A DNA stretch of 63,651 nt, counting the filler, from Deltaproteobacteria bacterium (GTDB lineage: Bacteria; JAUYMQ01), in assembly GCA_030698575.1 (NCBI GenBank). It is 13 parts of 13 records of this genome, joined end to end, with 100 filler letters (N's around TTAATTAATTAA, not from the genome) between each part and the next. Parts side by side here need not be neighbours in the genome. Positions count along the whole stretch, not along the records: positions 60,890 to 63,651 come from JAUYMQ010000163.1; 12 more parts are not named here. One strand, given 5' to 3'. This document shows positions 57,671-63,651 of this stretch, one piece after another; within the stretch, counting starts at the first letter, position 1; each line of letters begins with the position of its first letter. The notes beneath the pieces were generated by a model. The model saw only the letters and a program-made list of their open reading frames with translations, was not told the DNA's origin and did not search any database. Position numbers and translations under genes: made by a program.

Positions 57671-57904
57671 ACCGTGGGCGCGTTGTTCGACGTCATCGAG
57701 GGCGACTACGCCTCCCCGGATGAACTGGCCGACGCACGCGCCCACGACGACCGCATCCGTGCCGAGGCGCTTCGGGATGCCGCCCGCGGCATGGAGACGG
57801 AGTGGCCCGACATGGACCACCTGAGCCCCTCGGACTGGCTCCGGCTCCGCGCCGATGCCATCGAGCACGGCGAATACGATGCCCCCGACCGGGGCGAGGA
57901 GTAG
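57671..57904 (+). CDS. Phage-like hypothetical protein A, 5'-truncated
   Basis: RAEALRDAA...WLRLRA; ends PDRGEE. Confidence 0.7.
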   Translation, partial: TVGALFDVIEGDYASPDELADARAHDDRIRAEALRDAARGMETEWPDMDHLSPSDWLRLRADAIEHGEYDAPDRGEE

Positions 57905-57907
57905 ACG

Positions 57908-58327
57908 ATGGCTGACTCAGATTACAATTGGACCGCGCTGACCCGCCTGCGCTGTGGGGCCGTGGTGGAGGAGGTGATGGCCGCGACCCAGATGGACGGG
58001 ATCGGCGTCATCGCCTCGTGGCTGCTTCGCCGCGACGGCACCTGGAGGGTTCGAGCTGTGGACACCGAACTCGGTGATTGGATCACCGAGTTCGGCCCCG
58101 AGGAGGGGGTGCCACCCGAACCGCCAGCGAATCTCCTGGAGGAGCATGCGCTGTCCGGGGCCTACGGAGCGCAGGACACGCTCCGTGCAGAGCGAGACGA
58201 TGCCCGCGCACAGGTCGCGGCGCTGCGGGAGATGCTCGATTCCCTGAGCGTCGATCCATCGATCAGCTTCGGCCTGCGCCTGAAGATTACGAACATGCTT
58301 GACGACCGCGGCCGGGGCGAGGAGTAG
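57908..58327 (+). CDS. Phage-like hypothetical protein B
   Basis: Contains LRAERDDARAQVAALR; ends RGRGEE. Confidence 0.72.
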   Translation: MADSDYNWTALTRLRCGAVVEEVMAATQMDGIGVIASWLLRRDGTWRVRAVDTELGDWITEFGPEEGVPPEPPANLLEEHALSGAYGAQDTLRAERDDARAQVAALREMLDSLSVDPSISFGLRLKITNMLDDRGRGEE

Positions 58328-58858
58328 GTGATGATCTACACCGTCCAGCAGTGCGACAGCAGGGGGCGCTACGTCCCCGACGGGGATGCGTGGCTGGTCC
58401 GCGCCCGCTCCCCCCAGCACGCCGTAGACCTCGTGGCCGCGGACGGGTGGCGAGCCGGGCACGGCGAGGGGTGCGTAGTCGCCCTCGTGGCCGATCTAGC
58501 CAAGTGGACCCGGGGCGGTGATCCGCCGCTCCCGCTCGTCACGCCCGAGACGATCCAGTACGGGATCTGGCGCCCGCATTCGGAGGTGACGTGGGCCGGG
58601 TACGGAGGAGTCCCGGACGGCTGGCACTACTGCGGCGGCTGCGGGCTCGTCCGCGAGATGGAGTCGGAGTGGGCCACCGATGGGGACGAGTGCGACGAGT
58701 GTACCGGGTGCGAGAGCCAGGGCTGCGACGCCCCCGCGGCATGGATCGACTCGGGCGTGACGAGCGGGAGCGGCTGGTGCGCCGAGCAACGCGACCACGG
58801 GCCCTGCGAGCCTGACGAGCCTGACGAGCCTGACGAGAAGGACTCCGACGATGACTGA
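58328..58858 (+). CDS. Phage-like Cys-rich hypothetical protein C
   Basis: CGGC, CDECTGC, C..H motifs; C-terminal 9-bp tandem repeat. Confidence 0.7.
   Translation: MMIYTVQQCDSRGRYVPDGDAWLVRARSPQHAVDLVAADGWRAGHGEGCVVALVADLAKWTRGGDPPLPLVTPETIQYGIWRPHSEVTWAGYGGVPDGWHYCGGCGLVREMESEWATDGDECDECTGCESQGCDAPAAWIDSGVTSGSGWCAEQRDHGPCEPDEPDEPDEKDSDDD
58808..58837 (+). repeat. In-frame tandem repeat (GAGCCTGAC)x3.3
   Basis: Encodes EPD-EPD-EPD-E. Confidence 0.85.
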
Positions 58859-59486
58859 CCCCCTGACCCCCGAGCGCGTGCGCTCCCTGCACGACGGGGC
58901 ATCGCCGGACTGGGTGGCGGAGCCGGATACCGGCGCCATCACGTCCGCAGGTGTGCAGATTCTCACTACGGCGGCGGGCAACCGAGCGGGCAACCTCCCG
59001 CTGGCGCTGGCCGCCCCCGACCTCGCCGACACGCTGCTCCAAGCGTGGGAGCAGCGGGACGCGGCGCGGGCCGATGCCGATCGACTGCGGGATGAGCGGG
59101 ACACTGCGTTGCGCGTCACCGAGCAGTACAGGTCCATCGTGGAGGAGATCGGTGGGATGGGTCGGTCGAGCGCGCTGGTCAAGCTCCAGGCAGAGCGGGA
59201 CGAGGCGCGGATTCAGTGCGATCGCACCCGAGAGGCCGCCGCGCGAGAGCACGAGCGGCAGGAGGGGAACAAGGCGGCCCTCGCCGCCCAGGTTGCCGCG
59301 CTGTTGTGGAGCGCCCTCGACGACGTGACCGACGTGGTCCGCGACCACCTTGGGGACAGCTACCCGTGCGCGCTGGAGGAGGCGCAAGCGGCGCTCTCCT
59401 CGCAGGTATTGGAGACGTACACGACGACGGCCGCCATCGAGCGCGGCAAACACTGCCCCGAGAGGGGCGAGGGGGTAGAGCGATGA
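58851..59486 (+). CDS. Phage-like coiled-coil protein D (Ead/Ea22-like architecture)
   Basis: N-terminal LALAAPDL module, three QRD/ERD coiled-coil repeats; ends PERGEGVER. Confidence 0.7.
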   Translation: MTDPLTPERVRSLHDGASPDWVAEPDTGAITSAGVQILTTAAGNRAGNLPLALAAPDLADTLLQAWEQRDAARADADRLRDERDTALRVTEQYRSIVEEIGGMGRSSALVKLQAERDEARIQCDRTREAAAREHERQEGNKAALAAQVAALLWSALDDVTDVVRDHLGDSYPCALEEAQAALSSQVLETYTTTAAIERGKHCPERGEGVER

Positions 59487-59740
59487 AGGCATACCTACTG
59501 CGTGTTCTGGTGATCGACCACAACGAGGTCGGAGCCGGGATCCGCCTCGTGATCGAGGCCACCCGCTACCCCAACAGGTGCATTGCACCGACGGTCCTGG
59601 ATGTCACCGAGCACCAGATCGGTGAATGGTCCGACGACCATCCGCTGAACTACGCGGCCACTGACGCTCTGGCGTGGATCAAGGAGTACGCACCAGGGAG
59701 CGAGGACAGCCCCGACCGGGGCGAGGAGGTAGAGCGATGA
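59483..59740 (+). CDS. Phage-like hypothetical protein E
   Basis: ATGA overlap; MKAYLLRVLVIDH...IGEWSDDHPLN; ends PDRGEEVER. Confidence 0.75.
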   Translation: MKAYLLRVLVIDHNEVGAGIRLVIEATRYPNRCIAPTVLDVTEHQIGEWSDDHPLNYAATDALAWIKEYAPGSEDSPDRGEEVER

Positions 59741-60051
59741 CACGGACGACCGATGAGCGACTGACCGAGGCCGAGGCACGCGCCATCCTGACGCGCGACG
59801 ATAGGGACGTGGTGGTGGGGTCCGAGTACCGCGCCGTCGTCCACCTCGCCCGAGACCTGCGTATCGAGCGGGACGCGGCGCGGGCCCAGGTCGCGGTGCT
59901 GCGGACCGCGCTGCTCCGGTACGGCATGCACGACCGGGGCGTCGGCTACCCCGCGTGCGCCGTCACCCAGCCCCGCCCAGGGGCCTGCTCCTGCGGACTG
60001 GATGATGTGCTGAGCGGCCCCAACCGGGGCGAGGAGATGGACCGTGACTGA
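59737..60051 (+). CDS. Phage-like hypothetical protein F
   Basis: ATGA overlap; LRIERDAARAQVAVLR, H...C...CSCGL; ends PNRGEEMDRD. Confidence 0.75.
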   Translation: MTRTTDERLTEAEARAILTRDDRDVVVGSEYRAVVHLARDLRIERDAARAQVAVLRTALLRYGMHDRGVGYPACAVTQPRPGACSCGLDDVLSGPNRGEEMDRD

Positions 60052-60445
60052 CATGACCTGGGATTGGAGCGCCATCTTGCCTGAGAAGTGGGGCCGCGAC
60101 CACCACTCCACTCTGCTCTACATCGAGAGCCGCGTGACCGAGCACAAGGGCGTCCCCCGCGCCGCCAACATGCGGACCAAGCAGGGGAGCGTGCGGCGCG
60201 GGCACTGTGTGCTTGGCGAGCAGATGCAGCACTGCGGCGACAAGGACTACCCCACGCGCCTCGCTGGCGGCGTCCTCTTGCACGGTCACGATGACTGGGA
60301 CTGCGTGTCCGACATGGTCGCGGCCGGGCTCGTGGAGTGGGGCGGGACCGGGCTGCACCCCATCTTCGCGCTGACGGATGCCGGCTGGGCTGAGGCCGGC
60401 AGGCTGCGGCGAGCCAAGGCAGGCGCAGACCGAGGTGCCCCATGA
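60044..60445 (+). CDS. Phage-like hypothetical protein G
   Basis: RDHHSTLLYIESR, YPTRL, HDDWDC, winged-helix-like LTDAGW; ends DRGAP. Confidence 0.75.
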   Translation: MTDMTWDWSAILPEKWGRDHHSTLLYIESRVTEHKGVPRAANMRTKQGSVRRGHCVLGEQMQHCGDKDYPTRLAGGVLLHGHDDWDCVSDMVAAGLVEWGGTGLHPIFALTDAGWAEAGRLRRAKAGADRGAP

Positions 60446-60789
60446 CTGAGCCCTTGCCCCCCAAGCGCGTGAGGGCGCTGCTCCAGCACGCGTCGGTGGA
60501 GCGCATCGTCGCCGCGCTCCAAACAGGCAGCGATCCGATGGTCGTTGGGCCCCGCACCGCGCTCCCTATCGCTATACCCCTTCCGAGCCGAACTGGGCGC
60601 TACTTGCTCAACGGGCATCTGTGCGGCCTCGTGTGGCCACACCGGCCCGGCGAGTGGGTCGGCAGCGGTGGCGGGCGAAAGCGGGACGACACGATCTACC
60701 CGGACCGCACGTTCCGAACCGAGCGAAAAGCGACCGAGTACGCCGATCTCTGCCTGCGGCGGGCGGGCGATTTGATCGATGATCTAGGC
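60442..60789 (+). CDS. Phage-like hypothetical protein H, 3'-truncated
   Basis: ATGA overlap; N-terminus MTEPLPPKRVR resembles protein D. Confidence 0.65.
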
Positions 60790-60890
60790 NNNNNNNNNNN
60801 NNNNNNNNNNNNNNNNNNNNNNNNNNNNNNNNNTTAATTAATTAANNNNNNNNNNNNNNNNNNNNNNNNNNNNNNNNNNNNNNNNNNNNC

Positions 60891-61049
60891 CGTGCCGCGC
60901 GCGAGGCCGCAGGCCTCACGCAGGCGGCAGCGGCCGCCCTCGTTGGCCTCGGGTCGCGGACGCGTTGGTCGGAGTACGAGCGGGGCGAGAGTCGGATGCC
61001 GGAGTATCGTTTCGAGCTGTTCAAACTGAAGACGAAAGGAGGGAAGTGA
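60891..61049 (+). CDS. Small XRE-family HTH protein, 5'-truncated
   Basis: Manual translation RAAREAAGLTQAAAAALVG...RWSEYERG..RMP. Confidence 0.78.
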   Translation, partial: RAAREAAGLTQAAAAALVGLGSRTRWSEYERGESRMPEYRFELFKLKTKGGK

Positions 61050-61237
61050 TGGGTATAGAGACCCAGCTAAACGCCGCCCGGTACGTGTGGCTGCGCGACA
61101 CCGCGCAGCCGTGGCAGGTGGACGATGCCCTTTACGCCCCCTGCGGCTTGACGCCGGACGATCCCAGGTACGCGGCAGCGCACGCCGCTGCGGTGGACGC
61201 CGCGATCGATAACTATGCTGGATTGACTCAGCTATGA
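61049..61237 (+). CDS. Phage-like hypothetical protein
   Basis: TGATG overlap; NAARYVWLRD...DAAID pattern common in phage accessory proteins. Confidence 0.7.
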   Translation: MGIETQLNAARYVWLRDTAQPWQVDDALYAPCGLTPDDPRYAAAHAAAVDAAIDNYAGLTQL

Positions 61238-61392
61238 GCACCGAGACGCTACACGTTCCGGAAGAGCACCTGATCGAGGTGGTCCACATCATACGCGCCG
61301 GCCTGAAGGCAAAGCGCAAGGTCACGCCAGAGGTGCGGCGCCAGCTCACGAAGTGGTGCAACGAGGAGGAAGAGTATCTTGCTCGCGATTGA
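61234..61392 (+). CDS. Small hypothetical protein (52 aa)
   Basis: ATGA overlap; MSTETLHVPEEHL...YLARD; followed by terminator. Confidence 0.6.
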   Translation: MSTETLHVPEEHLIEVVHIIRAGLKAKRKVTPEVRRQLTKWCNEEEEYLARD

Positions 61393-61393
61393 C

Positions 61394-61423
61394 AACGGCC
61401 GCCTAGAGCGGCCGTTTTTATTT
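61394..61423 (+). terminator. Rho-independent terminator between convergent genes
   Basis: AACGGCCGC-CTAGA-GCGGCCGTT followed by TTTATTT. Confidence 0.8.
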
Positions 61424-61615
61424 CTGGACCGAGGAGAGGTACCCGGTGAGCGTGCCCGAGGCGTCCACCTCTTCACGGAAGCGGCGCTCGTACTCCATGA
61501 ACCGACGCAGCTCCGCGAGATCGTACTGGCTCCTGCAGTGGCAGCATAAACCGAGCGGGCTCAGCACCGTTCCGCAGCACCTCGGCACCCCGTTGTGGTA
61601 GAGGGCGACGGTCAT
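61418..61615 (-). CDS. Small Cys-rich hypothetical protein
   Basis: ATGA overlap; CCG...CCHC. Confidence 0.55.
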   Translation of the reverse strand: MTVALYHNGVPRCCGTVLSPLGLCCHCRSQYDLAELRRFMEYERRFREEVDASGTLTGYLSSVQK

Positions 61616-61803
61616 TTTTTCTCTTTCTGCGACGGCAAGTAGTCCAGCTCGTACCACTGCCGCAAAATCTCCGCCGCCGTGTGGTCGGCACTCCGACGCA
61701 GCCGGAGCGCCTCCGCGATGATGGCCTGCCCCACCTCCTTCGCGACGCGCGTTCGGATGGGAATGCCGTCAAAGGCGACCGCCCGCTGGCTGACCCTACC
61801 CAT
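61612..61803 (-). CDS. Small hypothetical protein
   Basis: Coupled to neighbours by overlapping start/stop. Confidence 0.55.
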   Translation of the reverse strand: MGRVSQRAVAFDGIPIRTRVAKEVGQAIIAEALRLRRSADHTAAEILRQWYELDYLPSQKEKK

Positions 61804-61966
61804 GCGTGCTGCCCCTCAACGGGGAGGGCTCTCGTGTGAACGGCCGCACAAACGGCGGTGTCTCGTCGGCGTGGCCCATCTTGATGCACCCCGGGTGCTG
61901 CAGGCACGAGAGGTACTGGCAGCGTTCCTCAGTCACCGGGCACACCTTCCCTTTAGCGGGGGTCAC
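61796..61966 (-). CDS. Small Cys-rich hypothetical protein (56 aa)
   Basis: Manual translation from GTG after AAGGAGG: TPAKGKVCPVTEERCQYLSCLQHPGC. Confidence 0.55.
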   Translation of the reverse strand: MTPAKGKVCPVTEERCQYLSCLQHPGCIKMGHADETPPFVRPFTREPSPLRGSTHG

Positions 61967-62163
61967 GCGACCTCCTTCTCTTGCTCCACCCCGACCGTGT
62001 CCGGGTACGCCCGCATCGCCTCGACGAGCTGCGGCGTGATCTTCGCCTCCTCATCGAACACGAACCCGTGCGTCTCCGTCCTCCCTGAGTAGCGGCGACA
62101 CGTCTTCGCATCGAGGTCGATCCGCAGGAGCAGCGTGCTCTTCACCTTCGTGCTCGTGATCAT
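61963..62163 (-). CDS. Hypothetical protein W (starts MITSTK)
   Basis: ATGA overlap with gene Z. Confidence 0.6.
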   Translation of the reverse strand: MITSTKVKSTLLLRIDLDAKTCRRYSGRTETHGFVFDEEAKITPQLVEAMRAYPDTVGVEQEKEVA

Positions 62164-62312
62164 CGCTTCGGGGCCACAGGCACGAACACCTCGACGCAGG
62201 CGTAGCGCCTGTACGCTTGCCCGTCCCGCTGGCATTCGGCCAGGTCGGCATAATTCCATGCCGCCATCGGGTTTCCCGACGTAAGCCAGATAAACAGCAC
62301 CCAAGTTTTCAT
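62160..62312 (-). CDS. Small secreted-type protein Z (50 aa)
   Basis: AAGGAG RBS; MKTWVLFIWL hydrophobic N-terminus; two Cys. Confidence 0.6.
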   Translation of the reverse strand: MKTWVLFIWLTSGNPMAAWNYADLAECQRDGQAYRRYACVEVFVPVAPKR

Positions 62313-62340
62313 TTGCAAATCTCCTTCGTGCTCGTGATCA

Positions 62341-62529
62341 TCACTCCGGCGCCCCGGCGGCGTGGCGCCAGCCTTCTGTGCCAAAACAGTCGGACGTCTC
62401 CTGCTCGTCGAGAAAACTCTCGAGTGCGTCGAGGTGCTCGAACAGCTTGTCGATATCTTTTTTCGTCGCCTTGCCGACGAGGTTCTTCCCGCGAATCGTA
62501 TTGAGTGTTCTGTCGGTCTGTAGCTTCAT
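62341..62529 (-). CDS. Hypothetical protein Y (62 aa)
   Basis: AAGGAG RBS; ends D.FGTEGWRH...APE. Confidence 0.65.
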   Translation of the reverse strand: MKLQTDRTLNTIRGKNLVGKATKKDIDKLFEHLDALESFLDEQETSDCFGTEGWRHAAGAPE

Positions 62530-62747
62530 TTGCAAATCTCCTTCATCCAGTCCTCGTTTAGGTTGGGAGGCAGCCACGTACGGTCGTCTTTTATCCAGCC
62601 GTATTCGCCGAGCGAATCCTTGCTTCGCTGTAGCGCGCTCTTGCGCATCGTTACCCGCCACTCCTCGTTCTCCGCGATCACGACATCGGGGTCGATGTCC
62701 TCGTCGGCCTCCGTCTCCATAAAATCGCCCGCGTTACCCCGGCTCAC
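62526..62747 (-). CDS. Hypothetical protein X (ends WMKEICK)
   Basis: GTGA overlap with upstream gene; alternative ATG 62720. Confidence 0.6.
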   Translation of the reverse strand: MSRGNAGDFMETEADEDIDPDVVIAENEEWRVTMRKSALQRSKDSLGEYGWIKDDRTWLPPNLNEDWMKEICK

Positions 62748-63235
62748 TTGAGTCTCACGGCAGCGTGGCTCAGGTACGCCCCGAGCGCGTCCGACATCTG
62801 CCCGTGGGCGTCCGCCATCGCGCCCTCGATTCGGCTCCCGTAAGTTCCGATGTTCTGCCGCCGGGTTGTGTTGCTGAAGCGCTGCAGCCCCGTCCCGCCG
62901 CACCCCTCGCAGACGATTTTCACCTTCTCGACCACCATCACGCGGGCGCCGCGGCAGACGGTGCAGTGTGGCGCGAGGAATTCTTCGAGCGCAGCCATCG
63001 CCGTTTTCTCCGCGATCGAACGCGTCAGCTTGTGCTTCTCCCGGATGCGGTTCGCAAGGATCAGGATGACGCGCTTCGCCCACCGCGCCTGCGCACCCTC
63101 GCGCATCCGCAGCAGGAGCCCACCGAGCGTGTCCCCTCCGGCGGCGGCCGCCAGCCGGTCGACGTCGTGCGTGATGCCGGACTCCATCTCCATGTTCTTG
63201 GAGTTCGTGGCGCGCGCGAGCGACTCTCTGGACAT
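62744..63235 (-). CDS. Zinc-finger protein, phage antitermination Q-like
   Basis: CTVCRG...CEGCGGTG after a helical N-domain; lies downstream of the replication gene. Confidence 0.55.
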   Translation of the reverse strand: MSRESLARATNSKNMEMESGITHDVDRLAAAAGGDTLGGLLLRMREGAQARWAKRVILILANRIREKHKLTRSIAEKTAMAALEEFLAPHCTVCRGARVMVVEKVKIVCEGCGGTGLQRFSNTTRRQNIGTYGSRIEGAMADAHGQMSDALGAYLSHAAVRLK

Positions 63236-63237
63236 TC

Positions 63238-63651
63238 CTATTCCCCCTGCGTTATGAGCACGACACGGTCTGGCGCGACCAGTTTGCATTTCCCCATCAG
63301 CGCAAGGCTCTCGAGCGCTGACATCACATGGGACGGCCTCTGGTCTCTTCCACCGGGAGGAAGCGGCGTTGCCGCCCTGTAGGCATCGATCACGTCCTGC
63401 ACGAGCGCACCCAAGTTATCCGGCCGCTGCTCGTCCTGAATTGCCCGGAGCACGAGGTCCATGCGCTTCCCGAGGCGCTTCGCCTTCTCGCGCGGGGCGA
63501 CCGCCTCCGTGTGCTCGACAACGCAGCTCGAGATATCGTCCCCATCCTCATCCATCCCGACCGAGACCGTTTTCAGCACGAACCCGAAGATCCTCCCGTC
63601 CTCCCCGTCCTTCAGCTTCGAGACTCGCGCTGTCCGGTTCTCGTCCTCGCG
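63238..63651 (-). CDS. C-terminus of phage RepA/AAA_25-type helicase, 5'-truncated
   Basis: KLKDGEDG..FGF.L..V.VG.DEDGDDISSCVV motif; frame open to window end. Confidence 0.68.
   Translation of the reverse strand, partial: REDENRTARVSKLKDGEDGRIFGFVLKTVSVGMDEDGDDISSCVVEHTEAVAPREKAKRLGKRMDLVLRAIQDEQRPDNLGALVQDVIDAYRAATPLPPGGRDQRPSHVMSALESLALMGKCKLVAPDRVVLITQGE

Follow-up and report, generated by a model that had tools for sequence, protein, structure and literature searches.

How could an open reading frame (ORF) of only ten codons come to begin like one gene, end like another, and lie between two further small genes that share the same borders? This question is raised by a minus-strand gene array in the window, the whole 63651-nt stretch of DNA that was analysed, which is built of 13 contigs joined by N spacers. 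The array lies in the last contig (60890-63651; 2762 nt, GC 0.638). The remaining contigs carry a mix of phage-like and bacterial genes, and the context was therefore taken from the last contig alone.

The gene array and its interlocked repeats

The gene order X, Y, ten-codon ORF, Z and W on the minus strand, as described in the earlier note, is confirmed by the coordinates and ORFs. In the direction of transcription, the whole contig reads as a cut gene, g163, X, Y, the ten-codon ORF, Z, W, g56 and g63, as follows.

63238..63651, minus strand: cut gene, 3′ part, truncated at the contig end; its relatives match as the C-terminal end of 550-699 aa primase/helicase-like proteins
62744..63235, minus strand: g163, a conserved anchor of 163 aa with 17 relatives (alignment A1)
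62526..62747, minus strand: X, 73 aa, left edge of the slot, ending ..NEDWMKEICK (stop); its N-terminal half is kept in X′ of locus L005
62341..62529, minus strand: Y, 62 aa, first cargo of the slot, member of a widespread family of small helical proteins
62309..62341, minus strand: ten-codon chimeric ORF, MITSTKEICK (stop), consisting of W codons 1-6 plus the last four X codons and stop
62160..62312, minus strand: Z, 50 aa, second cargo of the slot, an orphan with a hydrophobic N-terminus and two Cys
61963..62163, minus strand: W, 66 aa, anchor and right edge of the slot, starting MITSTKVK, with a homologue (W′) in L005
61796..61966, minus strand: g56, filler of a second variable slot between W and g63, missing from L005
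61612..61803, minus strand: g63, a conserved anchor with matches in L005, L006 and L008

Relatives of the cut gene were found by tblastn in four loci (L005-L008), and those at L006:7698-9350 and L008:1749-3848 match PHROG primase/helicase families. Since these relatives are primase/helicase-like, the contig is assigned by gene content to the putative early/replication region of a phage or phage-like element. None of the 11 contig ORFs matched Pfam, and PHROG matched Y alone, weakly (phrog_23793, E = 0.0022). No lambdoid gene families were detected among the contig ORFs with Pfam or PHROG, and the whole contig had no DNA match among cultured phages.

The start of X is corrected from an ATG to the GTG at 62747, its most likely start codon, which gives a protein of 73 aa and a GTGA overlap with the gene before it. 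L005 conserves the nine residues that precede the ATG, and X has the same length of 73 aa in the protein database. The dN/dS values against L005 are 0.33 for g163, 0.20 for the N-terminal half of X, 0.37 for W and 0.19 for g63, and this range of 0.19-0.37 indicates that the flanking genes are real. W is 63% identical to W′ of L005 and has a distant homologue at L008:4997-5209; g63 shows 73% identity to its L005 counterpart. The 17 relatives of g163 (54-83% identity), some of which lie on contigs of 56.8 and 60.1 kb, share four invariant Cys arranged as two CxxC pairs. g163 had no Pfam or PHROG match, and alignment A1 gave no matches in viral contigs or genome contigs. X and W had no relatives in IMG/VR and matched only themselves at near lengths in a 5.8-billion-protein index; X found no match in metagenome contigs. 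With no relatives of X and W beyond L005 and L008, the parental forms cannot be reconstructed.

The borders of Y and Z are formed by two different repeats, R1 (GAAGGAGATTTGCAAATGAA) and R2 (GATGATCACGAGCACGAAGG), each present twice.

62525-62544, minus strand: R1, copy 1, the end of X, containing a strong Shine-Dalgarno sequence and overlapping Y through ATGA (stop/start)
62308-62327, minus strand: R1, copy 2, an X-type end that also contains a Shine-Dalgarno sequence and overlaps the start of Z through ATGA
62323-62342 (exact; 62320..62353 extended), minus strand: R2, copy 1, a W-type start behind Y
62145-62164 (exact; 62142..62175 extended), minus strand: R2, copy 2, the true start of W plus ~14 nt upstream, also coding the tail of Z

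Both are exact 20-nt repeats with no further copy in the 63651-nt window. The R1 copies are 217 nt apart and the R2 copies 178 nt apart, and the two repeats interlock; R2 reaches 34 nt at 88% identity (62142-62175 versus 62320-62353). The 2762-nt contig was simulated 1000 times with a first-order Markov model, and none of the simulated sequences held an exact repeat longer than 16 nt; the two distinct exact 20-mers of the real contig are far beyond chance. R1 precedes Y and Z alike and R2 follows both, which bears out the claim that the two genes have identical upstream and downstream boundaries. The stop/start overlaps, said in the same note to be preserved, are all four present (ATGA, TGATG, ATGA and ATGA); the ten-codon ORF starts on the stop of Y and stops on the start of Z.

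The central copies of R1 and R2 overlap on GAAGG, and the ten-codon ORF consequently consists of the first 19 nt of W followed by the last 14 nt of X, exactly as the fusion through a shared GAAGG had been described. AAG is a codon in both W and X, so the fusion is in frame. An origin of the ORF other than the fusion of a W start to an X end is hard to conceive. Such a fusion joins a right boundary of the slot to a left boundary, as tandem accretion of two slot-fillers predicts.

A search of IMG/VR with the R1 and R2 19-mers returned four loci (L001-L004), in which only 20-24 nt were matched and tblastx found no similarity; these were treated as chance matches and not as relatives.

The tandem form in groundwater metagenome contigs

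The contig is short (2762 nt), and the metagenome behind it is rich in strains and in variant contigs. Both points would suit an assembly or library artefact, in which two strain alleles had been concatenated or a chimeric molecule sequenced. The tandem was looked up in k-mer contigs, produced by a second assembly method and distinct from raw reads, of two groundwater-metagenome runs, X1 and X2. The two runs stem from two samples of a single study, and the window itself may derive from one of them, so that they do not count as independent samples; a third run, X3, contained next to none of the stretch and is uninformative either way. A 689-nt contig of run X1 covers 61876-62564 at a depth of 6.4 and a 432-nt contig of run X2 covers 62133-62564 at a depth of 39.2. 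Both cross Y and Z with 0 differences from the window, and the path from Y through the junction into Z is unbranched. The join shares 5 nt and the repeats are 20 nt long, shorter than the assembler word (the join far shorter), and words spanning the junction must therefore exist in the reads. The tandem of Y and Z is not an assembly artefact; an artefactual origin of any kind is largely refuted by these contigs and is considered extremely improbable.

The same data contain variants of the array. Run X2 holds two variants of W, with depths of 28.9 and 12.9 (the second ~8% different), and both end at 62162, where the tandem contig starts. From these depths and contig ends the tandem is inferred to be the predominant form, linked to at least two downstream backgrounds. 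A contig of run X1 with a loose end at 62323 has at most 55 nt on the Y tail and R2, followed by 123 letters unlike R1 or Z; in a hand comparison of 30 of these 123 letters, 23 matched W after R2. This single contig, at most ~180 nt long and with a depth of ~2-3, looks like a single-cargo Y-W′ haplotype. A contig of run X2 departs from the reference inside R2 at 62332 and continues with 165 unlike letters; with these, the right-hand neighbours of Y-like tails would number three. Another contig of run X1 shares the middle part of Z and diverges upstream of 62250, suggesting a relative of Z.

The X-Z-W haplotype was found neither among these contigs nor among the related loci described below. 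The 217- and 178-bp deletion variants or circles foreseen in the earlier note did not turn up either: no such joint or circle was present among the contigs of runs X1-X3, which drop rare variants, so that absence from the population is not implied.

The slot and its cargo in related loci

A search with Y at E<=1e-3 yielded 96 representative clusters of relatives, most of them 60-70 aa long (best match 3.8e-21, 76% identity). Full-length similarity and two conserved motifs, N.IRGK and FGTEGWRH (alignment A2), place it in an unnamed family of ~60-70 aa proteins, in which N10, R13, G14, K15, L40, G50, G53, W54 and R55 are near-invariant. The family has no Pfam or NCBIfam model, and the Y protein had no match in cultured phages. 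The predicted structure of Y is a confident helical hairpin (pLDDT 88), for which Foldseek returned no PDB match at E<=0.001 (best 1.7).

Relatives of Y were present in 43 of the 90 viral stretches matched by pattern, and in 6 of the 23 genomic ones, the genomes including Afipia, Brucella pseudogrignonensis, Ochrobactrum and Pseudaminobacter. Nothing similar to X, Z, W or g163 was found on the 49 loci carrying them, and DNA similarity, in the 14 of these loci that have any, is confined to the interior of Y. Members of the family are carried by other phages and prophages that have none of X, Z and W next to them. Relatives that lack these neighbours, together with DNA similarity that ends inside Y, show Y to be a gene-sized mobile module.

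Z had no relatives in IMG/VR, cultured phages, Pfam, NCBIfam or PHROG; a language model gave one weak, sub-threshold lead, to DUF1482 (score 0.83). Y and Z could not be aligned as proteins at E<=100, and at the DNA level their interiors share a single 16-nt match, in inverted orientation; the two genes are unrelated. GC3 is lower in X, Y and Z (0.75-0.77) than in g163, W, g56 and g63 (0.83-0.91).

The identical edges and similar lengths of the two units (217 and 178 nt) might also result from tandem duplication of one unit, from the X end to the W start, in one genome, with later divergence or replacement of one cargo. This origin is rendered very unlikely by the failure of Y and Z to align. 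Furthermore, the Y family is old and widespread while the edges are 100% identical, and divergence cannot erase a cargo yet spare its edges.

The slot was compared in four related loci, L005-L008, among the metagenome-contig matches listed; not included were the contigs that encode P0004 (a g163 relative, 83% identical), P0019 and P0020. L005 (3029 nt, ~74% nucleotide identity) has the order g137′-g163′-X′-A (145 aa)-B (82 aa)-W′-g63′, and its genes A and B resemble neither Y nor Z and have no Pfam match. L008 has the order g163, a 93-aa gene, a 59-aa gene, the distant W (W″), a 75-aa gene and g63. Related slots, proposed earlier as a place to look for single-cargo forms, thus do hold other genes in L005 and L008, but the X-Z-W form is not among them. 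With different genes between common anchors in relatives, the X-to-W slot is exchangeable. The slot between W and g63 is variable too: it is empty in L005, g56 occupies it here, L008 has the 75-aa gene there, and a contig of run X2 fills it with 305 other letters.

The junctions of L005 resemble those of the present array. The B|W′ junction is R2-like, and B, the same as Z, ends ..KR (stop) with an ATGA overlap. A block of ~14 nt upstream of the W start thus moves together with W and codes for the end of whichever gene precedes it. Y can be aligned to this block without a change of frame, its TGA standing opposite the CGA of Z and B. The tails of Y and Z had been called similar in the earlier note; this holds insofar as Y aligns in frame to the block shared by Z and B, but the ..APE (stop) tail is normal for Y's own family, in which 3 of 30 relatives in A2 end xPE and 2 more end xPEE. 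At the X′|A junction an R1-like sequence is found with ~16/23 nt identical by hand count, no better than in the surrounding genes.

The exactness of R1 and R2 and their precise placement at gene junctions might suggest dedicated portable linker or recombination sites, PeSL- or attC-like, used by a phage recombinase or DNA-binding protein, with the perfect palindrome ATTTGCAAAT in R1 as the recognition site. The palindrome is AT-rich in a contig of 64% GC and its copies in the window are the two R1 sites alone, against 0.35 expected by chance, with two matches reached in 4 of 100 shuffles; a second variable slot adjoins, and the loose ends in runs X1 and X2 break at or inside R2. However, each repeat has two copies only, each merely an X end or a W start, and the palindrome is not kept at the X′|A junction of L005. 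Comparable exact junction repeats are absent from L005, L006 and L008. A simple consensus scan of 60890-63651 found no promoter-like site, the fold energy of the junction is ordinary (z = -0.35), and Rfam gave no match. None of the seven inverted-repeat pairs is located at a cassette edge, and none of the 11 ORFs on the contig, which is only 2762 nt long, matched a recombinase family. R1 and R2 show no sign of being dedicated sites, and a role of this kind is judged unlikely.

Origin of the chimeric ORF

The reading that is probably correct, taken as a whole, is that of a mosaic slot in which the ten-codon ORF is a W-start/X-end scar left when a Y-bearing and a Z-bearing haplotype were joined. 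Conserved anchors (the primase/helicase, g163, W and g63) would be separated by slots for strain-specific small genes, and the X-to-W slot here holds two unrelated genes, Y and Z, linked by the proposed scar. The simplest origin would be one unequal exchange between an X-Y-W and an X-Z-W haplotype, with the crossover between the W start of the former and the X end of the latter at the 5-nt microhomology GAAGG. Equally, a Z fragment or circle bearing the same edges could have been inserted; this route gives the same product and is indistinguishable from the exchange at this locus. The merging of X-Y-W and X-Z-W in tandem, already put forward in the earlier note, is favoured by the fusion ORF, the exchangeable slot in L005 and the low-depth contig with a Y tail and W-like letters, but one of the two presumed parents, X-Z-W, was not found.

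Because the join falls in the same codon phase, the chain of stop/start overlaps, and with it translational coupling, remains unbroken, and Z keeps the strong Shine-Dalgarno sequence of X; these two features could explain why the recombinant survived and became common. An in-frame join is expected one time in three by chance, so selection for coupling is not demonstrated by it. The event would also have created the two pairs of 20-nt direct repeats, and recombination between the copies of either pair would restore a single-cargo form. Precise loss of either cassette, as claimed before, is thus plausible by annealing or slippage, but no such joint was seen among the contigs and the repeats are short: the minimal length for efficient pairing is given as 23-27 bp for Red-beta and 31-34 bp for RecA in the available part of one report (PMC3945230). 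At 20 nt, below these lengths, the repeats should permit losses infrequently, more likely through annealing or slippage.

The ten-codon ORF might instead be functional, a coupling adaptor or leader peptide that sets the level of Z and is kept by selection. It begins on the stop of Y, finishes on the start of Z and is in frame, and the tandem is the dominant haplotype in two runs. On the other hand, Z does not need reinitiation, since R1 provides it with a strong, well-spaced Shine-Dalgarno sequence of its own. The sequence of the ORF is wholly accounted for by its two parents, and there is no second lineage with it, as it is missing from L005, L006 and L008. A selected function for the ORF is judged unlikely compared with its origin as a scar.

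An event of this kind, phage mosaicism at gene boundaries, is already known, and no new kind of system is involved; the interlocked double repeat with a free-standing chimeric ORF makes the locus an unusually clean instance. In lambdoid phages, nin-type regions are arrays of small overlapping early genes that are exchanged at gene borders. The present array is similar in its packed small early genes with ATGA overlaps downstream of replication genes, and lambdoid mosaics likewise have genes present or absent exactly at gene borders. The difference is that both steps are visible here in one molecule; membership of a lambdoid lineage is not claimed, because no lambdoid families were detected. 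Integron cassettes are promoterless single-gene units stacked in tandem at one site and individually excisable; they end in attC, an imperfect inverted repeat, and need the IntI integrase and an attI site. The Y and Z units resemble them as promoterless single-gene units in tandem at one site, but here the cassettes lack inverted-repeat ends and none of the 11 ORFs on the 2762-nt contig gave an integrase match.

The nearest described case is gene 68 of Island3 compared with Brujita, both Cluster I mycobacteriophages. In the available text of that report, this small orphan gene is present in one phage and missing in its relative, and its 3′ end copies ~50 bp of the 3′ end of the upstream gene, so that it is flanked by a short direct repeat; the authors propose recombination at short boundary sequences, in the direction of insertion or deletion (PMC3029335). 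As far as that text goes, the likeness lies in a small orphan gene flanked by a direct repeat derived from a neighbour's end. The Island3 case has one repeat of ~50 bp, whereas two different interlocked 20-nt repeats are found here, both occupants of the slot are retained, and a free-standing ten-codon chimeric ORF stands at the join.

PeSL cassettes of T4-type phages, according to the accessible portion of their description, lie in hyperplastic regions, where orphan genes have on either side a repeated junction element comprising the stop of the gene upstream, a Shine-Dalgarno sequence and the start of the gene downstream; when two such copies recombine, a single gene is lost or gained, and mini-circles can result (PMC2839356). 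The elements are described there as intergenic, ~100 bp long and present in many copies, with a sigma-70 promoter and a terminator stem-loop (PMC2839356). Set against this description, the present array is alike in having cargo between repeated junction elements with stop, Shine-Dalgarno sequence and start. It differs in that R1 and R2 are 20-nt pieces of coding gene ends in two copies each, with no promoter-like site in the consensus scan and no unusual fold.

A search of the literature on microhomology, tandem repeats and direct repeats in phages gave nothing relevant among the matches listed. Two models of mosaic joints, a 'short conserved boundary sequence' and 'illegitimate recombination plus selection', are set out in the parts available of two reports (PMC3029335, PMC3945230), and it is still debated whether such joints arise at short conserved borders or are random illegitimate joins filtered by selection. 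A 5-nt microhomology join fits the illegitimate-recombination model, and the resulting 20-nt repeats fit the boundary-sequence model for later events. The locus holds both parental borders and the join in one molecule, and a 5-nt join would here have made 20-nt repeats at the borders, through which genes could later be lost. The locus is therefore a natural test case, in which the tandem, single-gene forms and any circles could be counted in the same groundwater population.

A more far-reaching proposal is that the ends of X and W form a standing docking pair, so that any gene with the ~20-nt edges could be stacked, swapped or dropped by annealing-type phage recombination, the in-frame ten-codon adaptor being a general, selected product by which any number of cassettes could be chained with coupling kept. 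This generalization is improbable; if true, it would describe a promoterless analogue of PeSL or integron cassette arrays embedded in coding sequence. The parallel drawn earlier with the Shine-Dalgarno-centred boundaries of the preceding contig does not hold, since the repeats there are a hairpin plus Shine-Dalgarno element at five junctions, a different thing; under the docking-pair proposal they would represent a second, independent solution to the same problem.

A second variable slot and the genes around it

The interval between W and g63, two conserved anchor genes of the last contig, is a second variable slot. This emerged from comparison of this contig with its nearest relative (L005), a further related locus (L008) and a contig assembled from a groundwater-metagenome run (X2). 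The joints of the X2 contig coincide with gene borders.

Content of the W-to-g63 slot in the loci compared
Window, 61796-61966: holds g56
L005, 2127-2135: empty
L008, 5209-5436: gene of 75 aa
X2 contig, joints at 61802 and 61963: 305 other letters

Another anchor gene, g163 (62744-63235), encodes a conserved protein of 163 aa with invariant C91, C94, C109 and C112; these cysteines form a zinc-ribbon-like pair of CxxC motifs. Searches against Pfam and PHROG gave no match for this protein. A primase/helicase gene lies directly upstream of g163 in all four related loci.

Origin of X, Y and Z

Y (62341-62529) defines an unnamed family of helical proteins of 60–70 aa with the motif N.IRGK ... FGTEGWRH, and neither Pfam nor NCBIfam contains any model for this family. 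The family is frequent in viral contigs and prophage-like regions of Hyphomicrobiales genomes (loci L009-L057).

X, Y and Z (62160-62747) have a GC content of 0.58-0.60, which is lower than that of g163, W, g56 and g63, as is their GC3 (0.75-0.77 versus 0.83-0.91). The lower GC and GC3 hint that the entire X-to-Z block arose more recently or came from a foreign source. X (62526-62747) exceeds its L005 counterpart (L005:1099-1251) by 23 residues; the additional segment directly precedes the ..KE.. end common to both proteins, which indicates that X, too, is a mosaic in its 3' part.

A junction element in contig 12

Five successive gene junctions in contig 12 have in common an element of ~30 nt, in which a GC hairpin (GCCCCGACCGGGGC) is followed by GAGGAG and then by the stop and start codons.

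Hairpin-plus-SD junction element
Contig 12 (57671-60789), + strand: near 57878, 58301, 59455, 59709 and 60017

Because the element is repeated at the five junctions, five different proteins carry similar C-terminal tails of the ..(P)DRGEE type. Start-associated sequences, reportedly found in Cluster K mycobacteriophages, are nearer to this element than to the X-Y-Z-W arrangement. The same holds for PeSL, the regulatory cassettes at gene junctions of T4-type phages (PMC2839356): the multi-copy hairpin-plus-SD element resembles them more closely than the X-Y-Z-W arrangement does.

Other repeats and hairpins on the last contig

A 16-nt inverted repeat (94% complementary) pairs the interior of Z (62183-62198) with that of Y (62425-62440) and is probably due to chance. 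Between two convergent ORFs, 61234-61392 (+) and 61418-61657 (-), sits a hairpin that marks the end of the minus-strand operon of small genes.

61394-61416: terminator-like hairpin, 9 pairs, then a T-run
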